A stretch of 32,000 nt of DNA, taken from positions 1 to 32,000 of the forward strand of contig NJBF01000005.1 in the NCBI GenBank assembly GCA_003144275.1, given 5' to 3'. Source of the DNA: Candidatus Heimdallarchaeota archaeon B3_Heim (lineage in GTDB: Archaea; Asgardarchaeota; Heimdallarchaeia; Hodarchaeales; Hodarchaeaceae). The translations under genes and the position numbers were made by a program. This document shows positions 1 through 17,217 of this stretch, piece after piece; within the stretch, counting starts at the first letter, position 1; every line of letters starts with the position of its first letter. The notes below the pieces were generated by a model that worked only from the letters and a program-made list of their open reading frames with translations, had not been told where the DNA came from and made no database searches.

Positions 1-1152
1 TAACACTTAACCCACATTTAGGGACCTTAACCCCAGGCTGCGTTGTTCCGCTTTCGGTCGTGAGGCTTACCCCCACGTACCCGTCTGCCGGAGTCTACGT
101 AGTCGTCGCATTCGAAGTTTGAAAGAGGCTCCGAGATTTTACTCTCCGAGATACTCAATCCGGGCTCTACCACGGCAACATACTCGTCCGACGCTGGACT
201 ATGGTCCACTTCTGCAGGAACCAGCTATCACGGATTTAGATTGGTCTTTTGCCCCTTCACCCAGGTCATGGGAGCCAGTTGCACTTGAGCATCCGTTCGC
301 TCCTCCACGGCTCTTTCGAGTCGCTTCAAGCTGCCCAGGCGAAGATCAATCCGTTTCTGGTGTTACCCCTGTGACTCCGCGCATTTTCATACGCCGCACC
401 TCGCCACCGTGTAGGTGGTTGTGTGCTTGTCGCTTTCGCTGTGACTCCGCGGTTTCTCCGCTTAATCTTGCCACAGAGGCAAACTCCCCGGCCCGTGTTT
501 CGAGACGGAGAGGGTGACCCCGATCCACTCCGATCACTTCTGCTGTTGCCAGCGATCATTTCTCGGAGTATCGACTCTTTCGGGCCACACACGTCTATAA
601 CCATGCAATTTCAGGGACTTTTCACTTCCCTCTCGGGATACTTTTCAACTTTCACTCACGTTACTAGTTCGCTATCGGTCTCGAGGTGTATTTAGAGTTG
701 GCAGTTAGTGCCTGCCGGCTTCACGCGAAATATCCAATCCACGCTACTCGGGACTCTCCTACGGCTGTGATCGTTACGTCTAGGGGGCTATCACCCTCTA
801 TGGCACAACGTTCCAGGAGTTTTCAACTTCTGATCACAGGCGATGATGGAGGTCCTCACACCACATCTCCTACCCTTCACAGGGAGGATTCAGTTTGCTC
901 TTTGTCCCGTTTCACTCGCTGTTACTCGGGGAATCGCGATTGTTTTCTTTTCCTCCGCCTACTAAGATGTTTCAGTTCGGCGGGTTCCTTTACCTTTCGG
1001 TATAACATGACTTATTAGTCCATGTTCGGAAGTCCGATTCGGAAATCTTCGGGTCTCAGCTTACTTGCAGCTCACCGAAGCGTATCGCCGCTTGTCACGT
1101 CCTTCATCAGCACTTCGAGCCTAGTCATCCATTGCACGGCGTAGTGGCAGTC
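1..1152 (-). rRNA. rrl: 23S rRNA, 5' part (runs off the window start)
   Basis: The reverse complement carries conserved LSU motifs, e.g. GGATGACTAGGCTCG...CTGATGAAGGACGTG near the 5' end, AGTAACGAGTGAA-like, CCTGAAAT, CGTCTCGAAACACG and GATAGCTGGTTCC. The 5' end is approximate, by analogy to known archaeal 23S starts. Confidence 0.97.
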
Positions 1153-3089
<1,937 letters not shown>

Positions 3090-6191: not shown

Positions 6192-7910
6192 TTACCTCCC
6201 TCTTTTCTTTCTGAGATGAATTATTGTTCCCAGTCCTAAACAAATTATGATACTTGCTGGAAAACTTGTTGCGCTTGTTGTGGTCGTTGGAGTAGTCGTA
6301 ATGGTTGTAGTAGTGGTAGTAGTAGTAGTCGTTGAGGGAATGTAAGTATAATTCAGCTGAGCAATGAAGACATCTGACGCACCATTCCAGGTCGTATTCA
6401 GAGCATTTGGCGTTACTGGAAAATCACTTGATTGTGTAGATCCTACCATCAACATAGTTTTTGAAGTGAGTGCTATCACTTCTCCCGCATCATGTCCATC
6501 TGCTTCTCCGAGAACCCCGAAATCATCGTTGTCACTACCTCCGAGGTAGGTAGAATATGTTAATTCTGTTAGTTCAGGGTTGAGTGCAGCTAGAATATAG
6601 TCTGTAAGCCCATTCATTTCCTTATCATGAGCGTTTGCAGTGGTTGGAAAATTACTTGATTTGGTATACCCTACAATATAGGGATCGCCTTCTACTGACA
6701 ATGTTATCCCGCTTGCGAGATCTTTGTTTGTTCCTCCCAGAAAACTTGATGCTAAAAGGATTGATCCATTTTTTGCTAATTTTCCCACAAACAGATCATA
6801 ATTTCCCTGAAAATTCTCTCTGAATGAATTACTAGTGGTTGGAAAATTGCTTGATGCTGTTGTTCCCGTAAAATATAGGTCATCATTAGCATCTACTATC
6901 ATTCCTGTCAGCTGCTCCCATTCTGTTCCCCCCACGAATGTTGAATAGATGAGGGTTGACCCATCTGCGGCTATTTTTGTAATATAGAGGTTTGCATTAC
7001 TATAAGTCTTATCAAAAGCTGTGGCTGTTATGGGAAAATCGCTGGACAGTGTTGTTCCTCCCACTATGATATTCTTTTCACTATCTAGTGCCACTCCCAT
7101 ACTATATTCTTTGCCGGATCCTCCTAGAAATGTCGAATATAACACTGATGACCCATCAGGAGAAATTTTGCTAATAAATGCCTCTCTAGTCTGAATTGTA
7201 TTATTTATTGCGTTTGGGGTTAACGGAAAGTCCGGGGATTCTGTATTCCCTGTTACATAGATATTATCCTCATTGTCCAGAACTAAGCGATTATTCCCTA
7301 AATTATTGAAATCAAAGTCGTTTCCTCCGAAATAAGTTGAAAACATTAGTGTTGAACCATTTTCAGCAAGTTTTGTTAGGAAGAGATCTTGATTTCCGTT
7401 ATATGTCTCATTTAATGCTCCTGGTGTTACCGGAAAGTCATCTGATGTTGTTGTCCCATAAATCACTATATTATTCGCACTATCAACTGCGATGTCTAGC
7501 GAATGGTAAGAGACACCTGTCGTGCCAATACAATTATCATCGTCGCTTCCACCTAATACAGTTGAGAAAATCAGTTCTGTCCTGTCACTGGACCATTTAC
7601 TGATAAATACATCGGATTCACCATTATGTGTTTGATCATACGCCGTTTCAGTTGTGGGAAAGTCGCTAGAATAGGTTAATCCGGCCAGAATAATATTTCC
7701 TTGATTATCCTGAGCTATACACAGGCCATGGTCATTTCCTATTCCACCAAAAAAACTTGAGTAGATTAAACTGCCTGCATTTACACTTCCTTCTTGGACT
7801 TGTGACTGATCTTCTGGATAAAGAATAGATGTTTCTCCTGGAATCAAGAGGAAGAGTGTGAAGAATAGTATAGAAGTTATTATACTTATTTTTTTGCCTT
7901 TAGCATTCAT
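6192..7910 (-). CDS. SBBP-repeat (seven-bladed beta-propeller) surface protein (572 aa)
   Basis: Seven (Y/F/A)S(T/S)(Y/F/V)(L/F/V)GG units interleaved with SxDFPxT motifs, a signal peptide, a Thr linker, and SATSFP + TM helix + basic tail. Confidence 0.9.
   Translation of the reverse strand: MNAKGKKISIITSILFFTLFLLIPGETSILYPEDQSQVQEGSVNAGSLIYSSFFGGIGNDHGLCIAQDNQGNIILAGLTYSSDFPTTETAYDQTHNGESDVFISKWSSDRTELIFSTVLGGSDDDNCIGTTGVSYHSLDIAVDSANNIVIYGTTTSDDFPVTPGALNETYNGNQDLFLTKLAENGSTLMFSTYFGGNDFDFNNLGNNRLVLDNEDNIYVTGNTESPDFPLTPNAINNTIQTREAFISKISPDGSSVLYSTFLGGSGKEYSMGVALDSEKNIIVGGTTLSSDFPITATAFDKTYSNANLYITKIAADGSTLIYSTFVGGTEWEQLTGMIVDANDDLYFTGTTASSNFPTTSNSFRENFQGNYDLFVGKLAKNGSILLASSFLGGTNKDLASGITLSVEGDPYIVGYTKSSNFPTTANAHDKEMNGLTDYILAALNPELTELTYSTYLGGSDNDDFGVLGEADGHDAGEVIALTSKTMLMVGSTQSSDFPVTPNALNTTWNGASDVFIAQLNYTYIPSTTTTTTTTTTITTTPTTTTSATSFPASIIICLGLGTIIHLRKKRGR
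6257..6308. repeat. 52-bp direct repeat, copy 2
   Basis: Identical to 4815-4866. Confidence 0.95.
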
Positions 7911-8094: not shown

Positions 8095-10929
8095 CTATTT
8101 CTTCCTTTTCCGATATATAATTCCTTCTTTCTTACCTAATATTTTTCGATATATGGCTAAAATGACCATTGTAGATAATATGGGGAGAGTAAGTATGTTT
8201 GAAGCAGAATATACTGTAGTTATTCCTTGCAGATTTGATCCGAAACCTGTCTCTGACGATTCTTTTTCAAACCTTTCATTCTTCTCTCCTTCTCCAAATC
8301 CAATCCTCTGTTCCCATTGAGAAGTGCCTTGTAGGTCAATTTCTGTTACCCAGATATCTAGAGATGCCCCCGTTTCAGGATAAGTAACGCTTACGGTTCC
8401 TGCGAGTGTAAATTTTTCATTTCCAGTCTGGATAACTGTGTAAATCCCTAGTTTAGAATATTCAGACATGTCACTACTATCTGATAAGGTCTTATTCCAT
8501 ATGACTCTTCCCCTATCATCTGTTCTTAGAAGCCAACCGCCAAAACCAATGATATATCCTCCATCTTGAGTTGGAGTGAAAGCGTGCTTCGTCCCAGGAA
8601 AAATATGACAGTATTTATCGTCAAATCTTCCACCCCAGAAACATGGTCTTCCAATCGAATACGCTTTATACGATTTATACGACTGATTCCATTCCATTAG
8701 TCCAGTTTCATCTATTTTTATCAAAAACGGAGCGTATCCTACTGGATGACAATACTCTATGCAGTGGAGATAACTCTCACCCATAATAATGTAACTGTCA
8801 TTTAATTGGGTTACCCCACTAATTTTGTAATAATCCTCGTCAAAATAACCTGTATAAATAGAGTTCCATTGTAATTTTCCTTCACTGTCGACTTTAGTGA
8901 GAACCACTGAACCACTCCTATACTCTCCCTGAATGTAAGAGCTACCCACATATGCTCCCAGAATATATTCCTCATCTTCATTCTGGAATACTGTCGAGGC
9001 ATAGATAGAACAATTTTCTTCATATCCCAGTTGTATACTATTGTAGGTTTGATTCCATTCCATCACTCCCTTTTCATCTGTTTTAACAATGAAAACTTCG
9101 AAAAAACCTGATTCAGTAGAATTTGAACAACCAACTAATATAAATCCCAGGTCAGGGGTCTGAATAATGTCTTCACACCATTCATTTCCCCCTCCTCCAT
9201 ATGTTTGGTTCCAAATCACCTCTCCTTGAGTGCTTGTTTTTACTAACCACATATCAAGTCCACCTGCTCCAATTGAACCCGTAACTCCTCCAAAAGCCAA
9301 AGCACCGTCATTGGTCTTGATTAATTTTTCTATTCCGTCTTCACTATCTCCTCCGTATACTTGAGTCCATTTTATTCCTTCTATGCTCTCTATCGCTGTC
9401 ATAAAGGCATTATTTTTTCCATTTCCTATTGAACTGGTGCATCCTGCGACAATAAGTTCACCCGAATTGGTTCGAATTATAGAGGAAGCCCATTCATCAT
9501 CTAAAGGTATAAAATAGGATTTCATTGAGACAAGTTGCCCATTAGTCTCGTATTTCATTAAATTAACAGTAGAACTGTCTGTAACCAAATAATTATTTCC
9601 TGAAATGATATATTGATCACTAGAGGATTTGAGAAGATGAGTGATTTCCAAATCCTCGATTTTTTGCCTCCATATCAGCTCTCCTCCTGCAGAGAATTTT
9701 ACAAGATAAGATCTCAGGTCTCCACCCCAACATCGAAATGCCACAAGAATATCATTTCCATCAATTAGGAATGGAATATAATCTACATAGAAGAAATAAT
9801 GGTCATAAATTGACGTAGGATCCTGATCCCATAATGTGCCCAGTAGAAGGGGAAGATCGTAAGCTTTTCTCCACATTAAAACCCCATTTGCATCAATTTT
9901 CGCCAACCCAAAATCTTCGGTAATATATGCACCTCCCCCTGGCTTAAGTTCAGATCTGTATTCGAGAATCAATTCCCCGCTGTAAGTTACTTGTATACCT
10001 TTAAGACAAAGCTGTTCATTTGGTTCTCCGTATCTCTGGTTCCATTCAATACTTCCTAGGTCGTTCAATTTTATTACTTGTATTTGGTAATCCTCTGAAT
10101 TTGACCCATAATACAATTCACCTTTTTCTGTCTGAATAAGGAAGTGGTCTTTCTTTGGTTCGGGACCTGCCCACTCATTTATTGAATTAAGATCTTGTTT
10201 CCATTGAACGGCTCCACTAGCGTCCAGCTTTAATAACCAGGTAGATCCAGTAGTCTCACGATCATATTTATTCTCAGTCCAGGTCTGCCAATAATTTGTG
10301 TAACCCCCAAGAATTATTCCCCCATCTAACGTTGATAGAAGACCAAAAAGTCTAATCTCACATGTGGAGTTTCTAGAATACGTTTTTTGCCAGATAATCT
10401 CTCCATTAGGATCCGTTTTTATCACCCAAAATTCAGAATATCCAGTAGAAGTGATATCATCAAATGAGCTTGTTATTCCATTATAAGCCCCTGCAATGGC
10501 ATATCCACCATCAATTGTTTGAACCGCAGACGGATCTGAATGATATGTCCAATTATGGAGACCGTAACTTCGAGACCATTGCGTTTCACCTGATTGATTT
10601 GTTTTGAGAAGCATTAAACTTGATATTCCATCAAAGCTGCTCTCTTCACAGAATACCGCAATTCCTTGGTCCTTTGTTTCAATGAGATCTGTTGTAATTA
10701 CTGTAGATGGTATAAGAATAGAATTTTGTGAGTTAATTTCAAAATTCGTTATGATATGTTGGGGATTATCCTTCGGGGGTAGTGGTGGAATTAATAGAAC
10801 AGTAAGAATTAGTGGAAAGATAAATACAGTAATCTTACGATTTTTAATTTTGCTTTGATTCTTTGGCCTTTCCAAACACATAGGTTTAGAGCTTATTAAT
10901 TCCTTTTTCTTGCGATATATACTTGTCAT
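8095..10929 (-). CDS. Large multi-propeller surface protein (944 aa)
   Basis: Many W(V/L)(I/L/V)KTDxxGxxxWxxTYGG and DGG(Y/F/A) repeats, an N-terminal basic + hydrophobic segment, and a C-terminal TM helix + basic tail. The start overlaps the upstream stop (ATGA). Confidence 0.9.
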   Translation of the reverse strand: MTSIYRKKKELISSKPMCLERPKNQSKIKNRKITVFIFPLILTVLLIPPLPPKDNPQHIITNFEINSQNSILIPSTVITTDLIETKDQGIAVFCEESSFDGISSLMLLKTNQSGETQWSRSYGLHNWTYHSDPSAVQTIDGGYAIAGAYNGITSSFDDITSTGYSEFWVIKTDPNGEIIWQKTYSRNSTCEIRLFGLLSTLDGGIILGGYTNYWQTWTENKYDRETTGSTWLLKLDASGAVQWKQDLNSINEWAGPEPKKDHFLIQTEKGELYYGSNSEDYQIQVIKLNDLGSIEWNQRYGEPNEQLCLKGIQVTYSGELILEYRSELKPGGGAYITEDFGLAKIDANGVLMWRKAYDLPLLLGTLWDQDPTSIYDHYFFYVDYIPFLIDGNDILVAFRCWGGDLRSYLVKFSAGGELIWRQKIEDLEITHLLKSSSDQYIISGNNYLVTDSSTVNLMKYETNGQLVSMKSYFIPLDDEWASSIIRTNSGELIVAGCTSSIGNGKNNAFMTAIESIEGIKWTQVYGGDSEDGIEKLIKTNDGALAFGGVTGSIGAGGLDMWLVKTSTQGEVIWNQTYGGGGNEWCEDIIQTPDLGFILVGCSNSTESGFFEVFIVKTDEKGVMEWNQTYNSIQLGYEENCSIYASTVFQNEDEEYILGAYVGSSYIQGEYRSGSVVLTKVDSEGKLQWNSIYTGYFDEDYYKISGVTQLNDSYIIMGESYLHCIEYCHPVGYAPFLIKIDETGLMEWNQSYKSYKAYSIGRPCFWGGRFDDKYCHIFPGTKHAFTPTQDGGYIIGFGGWLLRTDDRGRVIWNKTLSDSSDMSEYSKLGIYTVIQTGNEKFTLAGTVSVTYPETGASLDIWVTEIDLQGTSQWEQRIGFGEGEKNERFEKESSETGFGSNLQGITTVYSASNILTLPILSTMVILAIYRKILGKKEGIIYRKRKK

Positions 10930-12415: not shown

Positions 12416-13576
12416 GTGTGCTTAAAAATTTCAGAAAGGATTGTTTTTTCAGTATTTGATAAGATTAAAGGCCCTACCGTTATTTATTCCACCATGAAAC
12501 GACAGGAGAGGGCTAAGAAGGTTGCTTCGAGGTCTTTTGTGGCATTAGGGTTTTCCAATAAGGATTTCGATATTACTGAATTGACTTTACCTATTTTATC
12601 TGATAAGTCTGTGCAAACCGACATGGCTTTTAGTCTATTTTTTCGATTACCCATTCAGGAAAATCTGAAAGAAACCGAACCTGCGGTTGCTTGCCTTTCT
12701 TGGATTGTCCCCATGAATATGGCTACAAATTTTTATGTAAAAATCCCATCAATTCGAGCAAAGGGGGGAAAAATCATCGAAGCAATTCAAGCAAACGTGA
12801 GAGATCATGGTATTATAGAATCTGAACTAACTCGTCAAATAATAAAGGGAATTGCGACTATAGGCTCTGTAACTTCTAGAGAGGAATCCCAAGTGATAAT
12901 CCGGTCAAAATCAGACGTACCAACTCTTAAAGCAGAGTCCGTTGGTGCTGGTTTTACCTTTCTAAGATCGATTCCTAAAAAAGCTTTACATTTTTTAATG
13001 CAAGGGGCAATTCTTGGAGAACCCATCCTCATTATTGGTGATAAATACACTTTCAATGTGGTTTCCGACACCCTGCTGCTATTTAATCATCAAGGTGTTT
13101 CAAGGAAAATATTTCTGGAAGATCAGCCTACAATTCCTGGAAATAATCATGCGGTTGGAATTCATCCTAATCAGAAACTGTCAAAGAATATCAAAGATTC
13201 ATACTATCTAACGTACTCTCTGGACAAACAGCGTATTGAACATAAAAGTAAACTCAAAGAATGTGATTTTGCTAAACAATGGACTTCAAACCTTTTCAAG
13301 GTTTCTTCGATTGATGATATACTAATAAATTTTCATTCTTATGTCGAAACGAAAATCCAGCCTTATGTCTCTCAAATTATTGACTTGTTAGCTCAAAGCC
13401 AAGATTCCAAACAGAACATCGCGAATACTAAGGCTTTTCTCTTAGATTTACGTAAAAGTTTGTCAAAGAGTGATTATGATTTTGTGATTGAACTAGCAAT
13501 TCGAAGCAATCCAATACTTGAAGACTTCATGAGAAAGGAACTTTTTGCTGAACAATTTGTAATTAACGGATGGTAA
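12416..13576 (+). CDS. DENN-like protein (longin/uDENN + cDENN-like core, 386 aa)
   Basis: N-terminal IVFSVFDKIKGPTVIY resembles the NPRL2/AVL9-type longin start. LHFLMQGAILGEPILIIG resembles the cDENN motif (DENND6-type LWELVLLGEPLVV). Confidence 0.65.
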   Translation: MCLKISERIVFSVFDKIKGPTVIYSTMKRQERAKKVASRSFVALGFSNKDFDITELTLPILSDKSVQTDMAFSLFFRLPIQENLKETEPAVACLSWIVPMNMATNFYVKIPSIRAKGGKIIEAIQANVRDHGIIESELTRQIIKGIATIGSVTSREESQVIIRSKSDVPTLKAESVGAGFTFLRSIPKKALHFLMQGAILGEPILIIGDKYTFNVVSDTLLLFNHQGVSRKIFLEDQPTIPGNNHAVGIHPNQKLSKNIKDSYYLTYSLDKQRIEHKSKLKECDFAKQWTSNLFKVSSIDDILINFHSYVETKIQPYVSQIIDLLAQSQDSKQNIANTKAFLLDLRKSLSKSDYDFVIELAIRSNPILEDFMRKELFAEQFVINGW

Positions 13577-13638
13577 AGGAATAACAATTTTAAACTCAAG
13601 TAAGCTACACAGGATTGAGATTTTATGAGGAATAAAGA

Positions 13639-14277
13639 ATGACTGAATATTTGATATTTGATTGGGCATTTCTAGTTGCAGCAATTATTTCTGGGTATTT
13701 GAGCCTTCATTTATTTCGGAAATATCAACAAGAGAAAATGACTATTTCTCTTTGGTTTTTATTATTATTTGCTTTTTCGACATTAGGCTATCTTCTCACA
13801 TGGTATGGTCTTTCTTCTACTGCGAGCTATGACGACATACCTTTATGGGTTTCACTAGTTTCTAATACCGTCTTAATTGGATCTTCATCTCTTGCTTTTG
13901 CCATTTCGTTATTGTTATGGAAACAGGATAACCGTCTCCTTATAATTCCCTTCGTCATTGCGATAATAGATTTATCAATAGTGATCTATGCGTTAATTGA
14001 ACCCTCGATGCAGGATATGGCCACAATCATTCGAGTTCTTGGTTTAACTGTTGTTTCCGCTCCTGTCCTCGTTGTATTCTTCTATTTGTACCTTAAAACC
14101 AATTCAGGTAAAAGTTTGAGTTTTAGTGTCGCCTGGCTTGTGCTCCTCGTTGGAGGTTTCAGTGGAAGATTTTTAGGTATGGATGTAATAGGAATAGCGT
14201 TGATAATATCTGCCATTATCTTACTATTGGGTATGGTTGGTTTTGTTGATCGAGTCATATTACGTAATCCCACATAA
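13639..14277 (+). CDS. Stand-alone 7TM membrane protein (212 aa)
   Basis: Seven hydrophobic segments with short loops, no soluble domain, and an SD-like GAGG upstream. Confidence 0.85.
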   Translation: MTEYLIFDWAFLVAAIISGYLSLHLFRKYQQEKMTISLWFLLLFAFSTLGYLLTWYGLSSTASYDDIPLWVSLVSNTVLIGSSSLAFAISLLLWKQDNRLLIIPFVIAIIDLSIVIYALIEPSMQDMATIIRVLGLTVVSAPVLVVFFYLYLKTNSGKSLSFSVAWLVLLVGGFSGRFLGMDVIGIALIISAIILLLGMVGFVDRVILRNPT

Positions 14278-14587: not shown

Positions 14588-15505
14588 ATGAAAACATCTA
14601 ATATGAGAATTTCTCTTTCACTTATCTTTTTAATGATTATTTACACGTTTAGTGGTTGTACTGATATTTTAGGTACGTTTGAACCTGCAGGAGAAAAGGA
14701 TCCTGTAACTATTCCCAAATCTACCTATTCTACGTTGATTTTAGATATAGATCTAGGAGTGGGATCGATTACATTTGATGTTATTCCGACTGCTACTTAT
14801 CTCGTTGATGTTGTTAATGCCGTTTCTATTCGAGAAGGCTCTGATGGTACTTTAGATGAAGCAAAGGCGGTCATCTCTTCCGAAATCAATACTGATACCA
14901 TGAAAATCTCTTTCGACTCGGGTGATGATAATATACAGGTGGATTACAAATATGATTCGACGATTAAAGTGGCCAACAATATTTCCCTCCAAATTAATTT
15001 TCTCGCTGCAACGGGTGAGATCTTCGCGGATCTGACTGATAAATCTGTAACTGTTTCCTCCTTTTATGTAGAGGCAACAACTGGAACGATTACTCTTAGT
15101 TTGGGAGAGTTTCTGATGTTTGATTCATCTCCTACAGTTAAAACGACAACTGGTAATCAAGATGTTACTGTAACGAATCTGAAATATGTTTCTACCACCA
15201 CTTGGTCTATTACGGGCATGACTGGAGGTATTAATCTGGATTTGACTGATAATTTGCCCCAAAATTTGACTGGTTCTACCACCCATCTCTTCAATCTTGA
15301 CTGTACTACAGGGAGTATTGATGTCATATCTGATCTCAGTTTGGGTATTGGTCTGCAAATTACTGCCTCTGTCACGACGGGAACGATTGATGTTCCTGGT
15401 TCAGGTGATTCCTACACTTCCCCCAATTTCGCCTCTTCCCTGTTGAAATATGATTTTACTATCATCACCACAACTGGTGGTATTACTTTTACCGAGGAAG
15501 GGTAG
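14588..15505 (+). CDS. Lipoprotein with toast-rack/DUF4097-like beta repeats (305 aa)
   Basis: Signal peptide ending in the lipobox FSGC, with repeated (T/A)TG(E/T/S/G)I and I-x-L strands. Confidence 0.75.
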   Translation: MKTSNMRISLSLIFLMIIYTFSGCTDILGTFEPAGEKDPVTIPKSTYSTLILDIDLGVGSITFDVIPTATYLVDVVNAVSIREGSDGTLDEAKAVISSEINTDTMKISFDSGDDNIQVDYKYDSTIKVANNISLQINFLAATGEIFADLTDKSVTVSSFYVEATTGTITLSLGEFLMFDSSPTVKTTTGNQDVTVTNLKYVSTTTWSITGMTGGINLDLTDNLPQNLTGSTTHLFNLDCTTGSIDVISDLSLGIGLQITASVTTGTIDVPGSGDSYTSPNFASSLLKYDFTIITTTGGITFTEEG

Positions 15506-15606: not shown

Positions 15607-17217
15607 CTAATCTTGAATCGAGGTTTTTATCTTTTCTTCCTGACTTGATCCCTTCCCCACCAACCGTAGTGCGGTGTCTATATAATCAATTACTTTGGAT
15701 TGTTGCATTCGTTCAATTAATGGCGCGTTTTGTTCTGCTAGTTCTCTCCATTTTTGTAGCTCCGTTTCTATTTCTTGTTCTTGTCTTTCAATCCTGTTCT
15801 GATAACTTTCAAGTTTGTTTTCATATGCTATGCCACGAGCTCGTTTTAATACCTCCATGGCCTGATTGACATTCCCAGTAATTAGCTGTAATTGACTTTG
15901 GATTAGTCTTACTTCGATTTCTAATGTGTGGGCTTTTTGTTGTTGAGCTAAATCGTCCAGGCGTAGTATTAATTGTTGAATTTCTGCCAGCACCTCTTCA
16001 TGACCTGAACTGGACACTTCCCAGATTAAGAGTTCTAACAGATTGAGCATGGCAAACACCGATAAATCTAGTTCAATTTTCTCTTCATTCGTGATTTGTT
16101 GGAAGATTTCTTGCGCTTTTGCCTTCATGACTGCTCGTGGACTTTTTTTGTAAATGATCCCTTGGGCAAGTTGGATTTGCTGAGTGATTTTAGGATCTGT
16201 TGTAGTACTCGTTAGTTGCTTTAACTGGTGGAGATAGCGTTGAGCTGCCTCTAATTCATCCAGTTCACTATTTACTAACACTAAATAGTAAAGTGTATCT
16301 GCTGATGTTAATATATCTCCGTATTTCTCATGTAGTGCGAGACTGGTGTGAAGTTGTTCTCTTGCTTGAATATAGTCTCCTTTTTTCATTAGAATTGTGC
16401 CCATTGTTAAATAAAAATCGTGTTGGAACCATGAGGATTCATGTTTTTCCATCAATGCCAGACCACTTTCCATCAATTTCAGAGCTTGGTCAAAATCTCC
16501 CCTCATGGAATATAGTTCTGCCAGATTCGCTTGAACATAGCATGTGGTTAACCCTTCGCCTCCAAATTCTTCTCGAAGTTCTTTACTTAATGTTAACGCC
16601 TGTTGCAAATAATTTACTGCAGGATCCAGTTTTCCCATCTGGTAGTAGATTATTCCTATTAATTCTAATGCCCAGACATGTTCTCGTTTGTTTTTTGATT
16701 TTTCTGCATATGTTAAACTTTTTTCTGTCCAAAATAGGGCTTTTTCATACTCTGTCTTCGCATAGTATATTTGTGCGAACCAACGTAATTGTTTGACGAT
16801 TCCTTTGTGATTTTGAAGTTCCTCCATTAGAGTTAATCGCTGTTTTGCATACTTTAATGCTGTTTGAGTATCTCCTTTGTTAAGATAGGCCCCTATTACC
16901 GCATTCCATGGATATGGCCAATAGAATCCTTGTTGTTGCATCACATGAATACCTTTTTCGGCAAATCTTATTGCTTTCTCAAATTCTCCCTTCATGAGAG
17001 ATATTGTTGCAAATGCATTATACACTCCTACTGTTAATGTATAAATCTTATGTTCTTCAAATGAGGGTAGAGATTTAGTGAATCCCTCAATACTCTTTTT
17101 AAAATCGCCCTTAAACCAATGACTCCCAGCATTTAAGAATGAACTAAATGCTTGCCCGAACACATGATTTGTACTGTTTAATCTTTTGGGCTTCTTCAAC
17201 TCTTTCCACTTGGTCAT
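15607..17217 (-). CDS. Tetratricopeptide repeat protein (536 aa)
   Basis: Serial TPR-like units (GIIYYQMGKLDPAVNYLQQAL, AELYSMRGDFDQALKLM, GTILMKKGDYIQAREQL) followed by a helical C-terminal domain. Confidence 0.9.
   Translation of the reverse strand: MTKWKELKKPKRLNSTNHVFGQAFSSFLNAGSHWFKGDFKKSIEGFTKSLPSFEEHKIYTLTVGVYNAFATISLMKGEFEKAIRFAEKGIHVMQQQGFYWPYPWNAVIGAYLNKGDTQTALKYAKQRLTLMEELQNHKGIVKQLRWFAQIYYAKTEYEKALFWTEKSLTYAEKSKNKREHVWALELIGIIYYQMGKLDPAVNYLQQALTLSKELREEFGGEGLTTCYVQANLAELYSMRGDFDQALKLMESGLALMEKHESSWFQHDFYLTMGTILMKKGDYIQAREQLHTSLALHEKYGDILTSADTLYYLVLVNSELDELEAAQRYLHQLKQLTSTTTDPKITQQIQLAQGIIYKKSPRAVMKAKAQEIFQQITNEEKIELDLSVFAMLNLLELLIWEVSSSGHEEVLAEIQQLILRLDDLAQQQKAHTLEIEVRLIQSQLQLITGNVNQAMEVLKRARGIAYENKLESYQNRIERQEQEIETELQKWRELAEQNAPLIERMQQSKVIDYIDTALRLVGKGSSQEEKIKTSIQD

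Follow-up and report, generated by a model that had tools for sequence, protein, structure and literature searches.

The window, the whole stretch of 32,000 nt that was analysed, contains a frame whose GTG start lies immediately 3' of an in-frame TGA and which is followed on the same strand by a gene for a seven-helix membrane (7TM) protein (Table 1). Because 12 homologs with 54-73% identity to the encoded protein stay open end to end, the frame is a real and conserved gene. The taxonomic labels of these homologs are Hodarchaeales and Kariarchaeaceae, both within the Heimdall-group Asgard archaea. An exhaustive HMMER scan of 1.84 billion protein representatives returned only 22 matching clusters and added intermediate relatives with 43, 37 and 30% identity to the target. 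The public gene calls of four orthologs (P0007-P0010) begin at an internal ATG, equivalent to M27 of the target, and thereby lose strand beta1, a Gly-Pro (GP) motif and strand beta2. Upstream of the P0009 call, the frame is open and codes for the conserved beta1-GP-beta2 segment, which supports the GTG start in the window. Judged from the reading frames, the M27-equivalent starts are gene-calling artefacts, with non-ATG starts missed.

The surroundings of the gene pair are archaeal and include a complete 16S rRNA gene and the 5' part of a 23S rRNA gene. This rRNA operon lies about 9 kb upstream of the pair and has a GC content of 0.47-0.53, compared with about 0.37 elsewhere. Two reverse-strand genes are located between the operon and the pair. 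One product matches the SBBP beta-propeller repeat family of Pfam. The other is probably a surface protein, since by eye it has propeller-like repeats, with hydrophobic stretches close to either terminus. Downstream of the pair lies a gene for a 305-aa protein, in which an N-terminal hydrophobic segment ending in a lipobox-like SGC precedes a body rich in Thr and Ser. No Pfam family matches this protein, and relatives do not keep its gene beside the pair. It is followed by a gene for a MalT-like TPR protein, in place of which the relatives have a small TPR gene (117-134 aa) directly upstream of the longin-DENN gene.

Table 1. Features of the window and of related loci. Positions without a prefix refer to the window; domains and structural elements are those of the predicted model.
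Feature	Position	Strand	Remarks
rRNA operon	1..3089	-	
23S rRNA gene, 5' part	1..1156	-	
16S rRNA gene, complete	1616..3089	-	
SBBP repeat protein gene	6192..7910	-	572 aa
Probable surface protein gene	8095..10929	-	944 aa
Longin-DENN protein gene	12416..13576	+	386 aa; GTG start, TAA stop; based on ORF and translation, homologs and structure model
Longin (uDENN) domain	12437..12808	+	residues 8-131; secondary structure of model
GP motif	12470..12475	+	G19-P20, end of beta1-beta2 loop, directly before beta2 in model
beta4-beta5 loop	12644..12685	+	R77-A90; R77 at base, K84 inside; place of FLCN R164 / SMCR8 R147
DENN domain	12932..13564	+	residues 173-383; alpha/beta core ~173-276, helical tail 284-383 (model)
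Spacer	13577..13638	+	62 nt; Shine-Dalgarno-like GAGGA 13627-13631, 7 nt before next start codon
Conserved partner gene, seven-helix membrane protein	13639..14277	+	212 aa; predicted N-out/C-in
Thr/Ser-rich protein gene	14588..15505	+	305 aa
MalT-like TPR protein gene	15607..17217	-	536 aa
Paralog without GP motif, source genome	C27:66235-67290		
Paralog with GP motif, source genome (contig C15)	L003:1435-2598		
~277-aa membrane protein, neighbour of GP-less paralogs	L002:2612-3445 (contig C27)	-	
~277-aa membrane protein, neighbour of GP-less paralogs	L019:2592-3437		
~277-aa membrane protein, neighbour of GP-less paralogs	L021:614-1441		
beta1-GP-beta2 segment upstream of P0009 call	L006:5210-5419		
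AP endonuclease, M24 peptidase, small TPR, DinB genes, source genome	C49:30724-34136		88-bp slot between TPR and DinB
Rag-type (Gtr1_RagA) GTPase gene	L004:172-1074; L005:172-1074		same strand as ortholog
Chemotaxis cluster with sister-clade gene	L030:1-7272		

The assignment of seven helices to the partner protein is based on seven hydrophobic segments in its hydropathy profile, and the positive-inside count places nine Lys and Arg residues inside versus none outside. An ortholog of 212-218 aa follows on the same strand, 27-45 nt downstream, on all ortholog contigs with enough flank (L004/L005, L006, L026 and L027), which gives a gap of 27-62 nt when the window is included. The Shine-Dalgarno-like element is kept as GAGG or AGG at the same distance before the 7TM start in L004, L006 and L026. 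The 7TM orthologs share 63-66% identity, a higher conservation than that of the longin-DENN protein. Both proteins share a narrow range, and among the 83 species representatives of the class, the source genome alone has a close ortholog of either.

In the relatives, the pair is flanked by genes for an AP endonuclease, an M24 peptidase and a small TPR protein upstream and by a DinB gene downstream. The source genome has these same flanking genes on contig C49, with an empty slot where the pair would be expected, and carries the pair on contig C88, adjoining the rRNA operon and away from the flanking genes. Thus, both genes must have moved out of the ancestral slot jointly, and no other evidence speaks as strongly for the longin-DENN and 7TM genes being one unit. 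The pairing was not mentioned in the literature searched, including Liu et al. and PMC12290439.

The most conserved parts of the 7TM protein are its cytoplasmic loops 3 and 5, with an identity of 0.96 versus 0.65-0.81 in the outer loops. The ESM Atlas model (pTM 0.79) reaches query-normalised TM-scores of 0.67-0.75 to 7TM receptor and sensor bundles; at the level of the model, these structural neighbours indicate a common bundle and are not proof of homology. No Pfam family was found for the protein, nor membership in the GPCR classes, HisKA_7TM or the PQ-loop proteins, and the nearest named Atlas cluster, HisKA_7TM, had a score of only 0.82. The predicted complex of the longin-DENN and 7TM proteins scored 0.03, which is below the mark and speaks neither for nor against binding. 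The putative link between the two proteins is drawn from gene order alone.

Family proteins of 360-400 aa are present in 50 of the 83 species representatives. The source genome has two paralogs of the target, one on contig C27 without the GP motif, which is 20% identical end to end, and one on contig C15 with it. Longer fused forms (677-2000 aa) of the longin-DENN protein were not found, which carries little weight as evidence. Maximum-likelihood analysis places P0025 and P0026 (92/81) as sister to the target clade, itself supported at 98/95, and together they occupy a long, fully supported branch apart from the other paralogs. P0025 and P0026 are 43% and 37% identical to the target, respectively, and 47% identical to each other. 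The original prediction had suggested a highly divergent protein that may define an uncharacterised family. The divergence holds, given the absence of a Pfam match and the 22 clusters among 1.84 billion proteins; the idea of a new family does not, as the target is a divergent, Pfam-invisible subfamily of Asgard longin-DENN proteins that have already been reported.

The sister clade is found among chemotaxis genes. P0026 has CheA, CheY and two CheW-domain genes as neighbours to one side and CheB to the other, and P0025 adjoins CheB (contigs L028-L031). Neither has a 7TM neighbour. No CheW match was found in the source genome, which is 94% complete, and the literature searched held no mention of the position of this clade in che clusters. 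The GP-less paralogs, the C27 copy included, form a clade that always has, as a tail-to-tail neighbour, the gene for a conserved membrane protein with several helices (about 277 aa). A BLASTP comparison of this protein with the 7TM partner gave no match, and hhalign aligned the two with an E-value of 3.2e-4 at a probability of only 39%, so that a distant kinship is suggested only weakly.

Sequence searches did not assign the target to a known family. There was no Pfam match up to E 10, no relevant Pfam match for 13 close homologs, and no match of the protein or its profile to PDB sequences up to E 10. The DENN-clan models PF02141, PF11704, PF16692 and PF15019 did not match the target significantly. 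Sub-threshold Pfam matches were obtained for 7 of 36 relatives (C9orf72-like in three, Folliculin_C in two and DENN in two; best E 0.0015), and the Folliculin model, searched against the whole genome, gave chance-level matches in giant proteins only. The neighbours of the target in a protein language model are Folliculin, C9orf72, SMCR8 and DENND11 clusters. Since no DENN-clan model matches significantly, membership in the DENN superfamily rests on structure prediction.

A first AlphaFold2 model, computed from a 13-row alignment of close homologs, was confident only over residues 176-386, with a pLDDT below 50 over residues 1-175. It was superseded by a second model from a 36-row alignment, which adds the intermediates and paralogs from 20 genomes of the class and reaches a pLDDT of 77.7 and a pTM of 0.66; its five models agree (pLDDT 74.9-77.7). 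The predicted fold consists of an N-terminal longin domain and a C-terminal DENN domain with two linker helices between them. The longin elements beta1 (8-15), beta2 (19-25), alpha1 (30-44), beta3 (53-61), beta4 (67-77), beta5 (91-99) and alpha2 (100-131) have the order beta-beta-alpha-beta-beta-beta-alpha, as in uDENN. The DENN domain has a pLDDT of 80-95 in both the first and the second model.

This model agrees with the elements that had been read from the sequence in the original prediction. The proposed longin-type strand-turn-strand FSxFDxxxGPxxxY is present as F11-S-V-F-D-K-I-K-G19-P20-T-V-I-Y24 and spans beta1, the turn and beta2. The central segment said to resemble the cDENN core corresponds to L191...G208 and V215...F223, which form the helix-strand-helix that opens the DENN core in the model, and the helical tail is found at the place of dDENN. 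An AlphaFold model and a Foldseek search had been proposed as a check, with a structure lacking a longin N-domain or a cDENN alpha/beta core as the refuting outcome; both were recovered, which supports the prediction.

The top 28 Foldseek matches in the PDB are exclusively longin-DENN or longin-GAP proteins, and the same was observed with the first model. The best E-value belongs to C9orf72-SMCR8 chains (1.8e-9), followed by FLCN (5.6e-8); other top matches include DENND1B, DENND10, FNIP2, the FLCN DENN domain, a Lokiarchaeota longin domain, Lst4 and NPRL2. The TM-scores, normalised to the matched structures, are 0.62-0.65 for the Lokiarchaeota longin, Lst4 and NPRL2. The global TM-score to full-length FLCN and SMCR8 is about 0.36, a low value that is due to the different orientation of the domains. 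VIA-align, a structure search independent of Foldseek, gave the matches listed in Table 2.

Table 2. Matches of the predicted model found with VIA-align.
PDB chain	Protein	Z	Aligned part
6nzd_H	FLCN	16.7	321 residues, model 6-365 vs FLCN 2-558
8yqg_B	Lokiarchaeota longin	15.9	rmsd 2.9, 144 aa
7o2w_A	C9orf72	13.9	348 residues
3v42_B	FLCN C-terminal DENN domain	13.7	rmsd 3.3, 178 aa; model 178-367 vs FLCN 347-558
4zy8_C	Lst4 longin	12.5	
6lt0_B	SMCR8	11.7	
8p0v_M	DENND10	11.4	
6ulg_N	FNIP2	10.9	
8fw5_B	NPRL2	10.3	
6ekk_A	DENND1A	10.1	model 166-378

Two sequence features of longin domains bear on the possible activity. The GP motif at the end of the beta1-beta2 loop is common to FLCN, NPRL2, SMCR8, C9orf72 and a class of Heimdall longins, is absent from the longins of FNIP2, NPRL3 and the DENND proteins, and marks longins with a catalytic pocket (PMC12290439, motif defined in section 2.4). 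All orthologs whose N-terminus is covered have it, as do the sister clade and most paralogs, and it is present in 22 of 32 family rows. The second feature is the arginine finger in the beta4-beta5 loop, represented by R147 of SMCR8 and R164 of FLCN (bioRxiv 10.1101/2020.04.16.045708). The family alignment has no clade-wide conserved arginine at or in this loop, which is modelled at low confidence (pLDDT about 54). R77 is invariant only in orthologs with at least 55% identity and is replaced by H or N in P0025 and P0026, and the position of K84 varies between K, R, M and T among the relatives.

The source genome has about 50 small GTPase genes, five of which are strongly of the Rag type. None is located in the window, and the nearest on the contig is at about 71 kb. 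Likewise, no GTPase gene was found within 1.5 kb of the 12 paralogs examined. On C49, the empty slot is preceded at about 10 kb by two Rag-type GTPase genes. In two MAGs (L004 and L005), a Rag-type GTPase gene precedes the ortholog by 3.4 kb in the same orientation. This gene was not found in L006 and is unlinked in the source genome, so that a conserved link to a Rag GTPase client was rejected.

With a probability of roughly 60%, the best explanation of these results is that the gene codes for a folliculin/SMCR8/C9orf72-type longin-DENN protein, compact and with two domains, which would act as a 7TM-coupled regulator of a small GTPase. The longin-DENN and 7TM genes would be co-transcribed, and the 7TM protein would anchor or gate its soluble partner on the cytoplasmic side of the membrane. 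The longin domain would probably pair with a second longin domain, either its own or that of a paralog, for which the C27 and C15 copies are candidates. At the membrane, it would then engage one of the approximately 50 small GTPases and change its nucleotide state. Because of the GP motif and the best structural matches, the predicted mechanism favoured here is of the GAP type, as in FLCN, SMCR8 and NPRL2, over exchange of the DENND type. A non-catalytic partner role, as for FNIP and C9orf72, is equally possible, since R77 is no more than a candidate for the catalytic arginine.

If such a non-catalytic role were the whole function, the protein would be a scaffold subunit like FNIP, C9orf72 or DENND10, which pairs with a longin or longin-DENN protein or docks on the 7TM protein and does not touch the nucleotide pocket. 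The lack of a family-wide arginine at the finger position is consistent with this, as is the coexistence of paralogs with and without the GP motif in the same genomes, which resembles that of FLCN and FNIP, and FNIP2 and DENND10 are also good structural matches. However, the GP motif is the mark of catalytic-pocket longins, and R77 is invariant within the ortholog group. A scaffold is regarded as unlikely. A role as a DENND-type guanine-nucleotide exchange factor for a Rab-like GTPase, in which the DENN core and not the longin would act, is less probable again. Liu et al. (bioRxiv 10.1101/2020.10.19.343400) propose an exchange role for Asgard DENN proteins, and the significant matches include structures of the DENND1A/B-Rab35 exchange factors (Foldseek E 1e-6 to 2e-5; VIA-align Z 10.1). 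Nevertheless, FLCN, SMCR8 and C9orf72 outscore the DENND proteins in both structure searches, the GP motif of the target is absent from DENND-family longins, and the operon of Roadblock, Rab-like GTPase and DENN genes described by Liu et al. is missing around the gene. The original prediction of a DENN-like protein is retained, and by its GP motif and top structural matches the protein is closer to the FLCN/SMCR8/C9orf72 branch than to the classical DENND Rab GEFs. A fold coincidence or modelling artefact in a protein unrelated to DENN proteins is very improbable: the target lacks a sequence-level match and the first model had a low pLDDT over its N-terminal half, but both domains are confident with the deeper alignment, two independent aligners give the same exclusive top set for each domain and for the whole chain, the domain order is that of FLCN, and the language-model neighbours agree.

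Within the preferred reading of a 7TM-coupled GTPase regulator, the two proteins could tentatively be seen as a receptor-transducer pair, in which a seven-helix sensor is coupled directly to a folliculin-type GTPase regulator in a prokaryote. This more specific proposal is doubtful as yet, and it fits the fixed gene pair, the joint move and the sister clade inside chemotaxis clusters. These contexts suggest that this branch of the Asgard longin-DENN proteins may carry sensory input, from a 7TM or a Che protein, to a GTPase switch. If true, FLCN or C9orf72 signalling gated by a membrane protein would have an archaeal forerunner in this pair, or else the pair would be analogous to the way in which Frz is wired to MglA/MglB in myxobacteria.

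Nutrient signalling and lysosome function in eukaryotes are under the control of folliculin, SMCR8/C9orf72 and GATOR1, whose archaeal roots are actively debated. To our knowledge, none of the Asgard longin-DENN proteins has a known client or partner. The gene described here adds a divergent, Pfam-undetected subfamily, and the 7TM protein, which is fixed beside it and has moved with it, provides a concrete candidate for a partner. Co-expression of the pair would allow tests against a finite set of targets, the roughly 50 GTPases encoded in that genome. The location of the sister clade in che clusters offers another, independent way to approach what these proteins sense.

Among the known systems, human FLCN, which acts as a RagC/D GAP in the FLCN-FNIP2 complex (PDB 6nzd, 6ulg, 8dhb and 3v42), is the best whole-chain match, covering both domains and sharing the GP motif. 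The identity is about 11%, and the target, with 386 aa, lacks the long insertions of FLCN, whose aligned chain is numbered to 558. Furthermore, the counterpart of Arg164 in the target is only a candidate, the domains are oriented differently (global TM 0.36), and no FNIP-like large partner is known for the target.

The C9orf72-SMCR8-WDR41 complex is brought to lysosomes by PQLC2, a seven-helix PQ-loop transporter. This recruitment is a functional analogy to the 7TM neighbour of the target, although the latter has no detectable relation to PQ-loop proteins. The complex itself, an ARF/RAB GAP (PDB 7mge, 7o2w and 6lt0), includes the top Foldseek match (E 1.8e-9), with VIA-align Z-scores of 13.9 for C9orf72 and 11.7 for SMCR8. 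However, no WDR41-like propeller is linked to the target gene, and the counterpart of SMCR8 R147 is uncertain. DENND10 and the DENND1A/B GEFs of Rab35 (PDB 3tw8, 6ekk and 8p0v) have the same longin and DENN architecture and match significantly, but they score below the FLCN/SMCR8 group and their longins have no GP motif (PMC12290439).

The closest known proteins are the longin-DENN "FLCN-like" proteins of Heimdall-group Asgard archaea, reported in 2020-21 (bioRxiv 10.1101/2020.10.19.343400; Nature 2021) and in 2025 (Traffic, PMC12290439). The original prediction had stated that DENN-related proteins have been reported in Asgard archaea, and these Heimdall-group cases bear it out. Like the target, the FLCN/SMCR8-type longins among them have the GP motif before beta2 (PMC12290439). 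Compared with the reported proteins, the target subfamily has no Folliculin Pfam match, is set apart by a long branch with full support, lacks a clear arginine finger and is fixed beside a 7TM gene. This fixed 7TM pairing, the joint departure from the ancestral slot and the occurrence of the sister clade in chemotaxis clusters are new.
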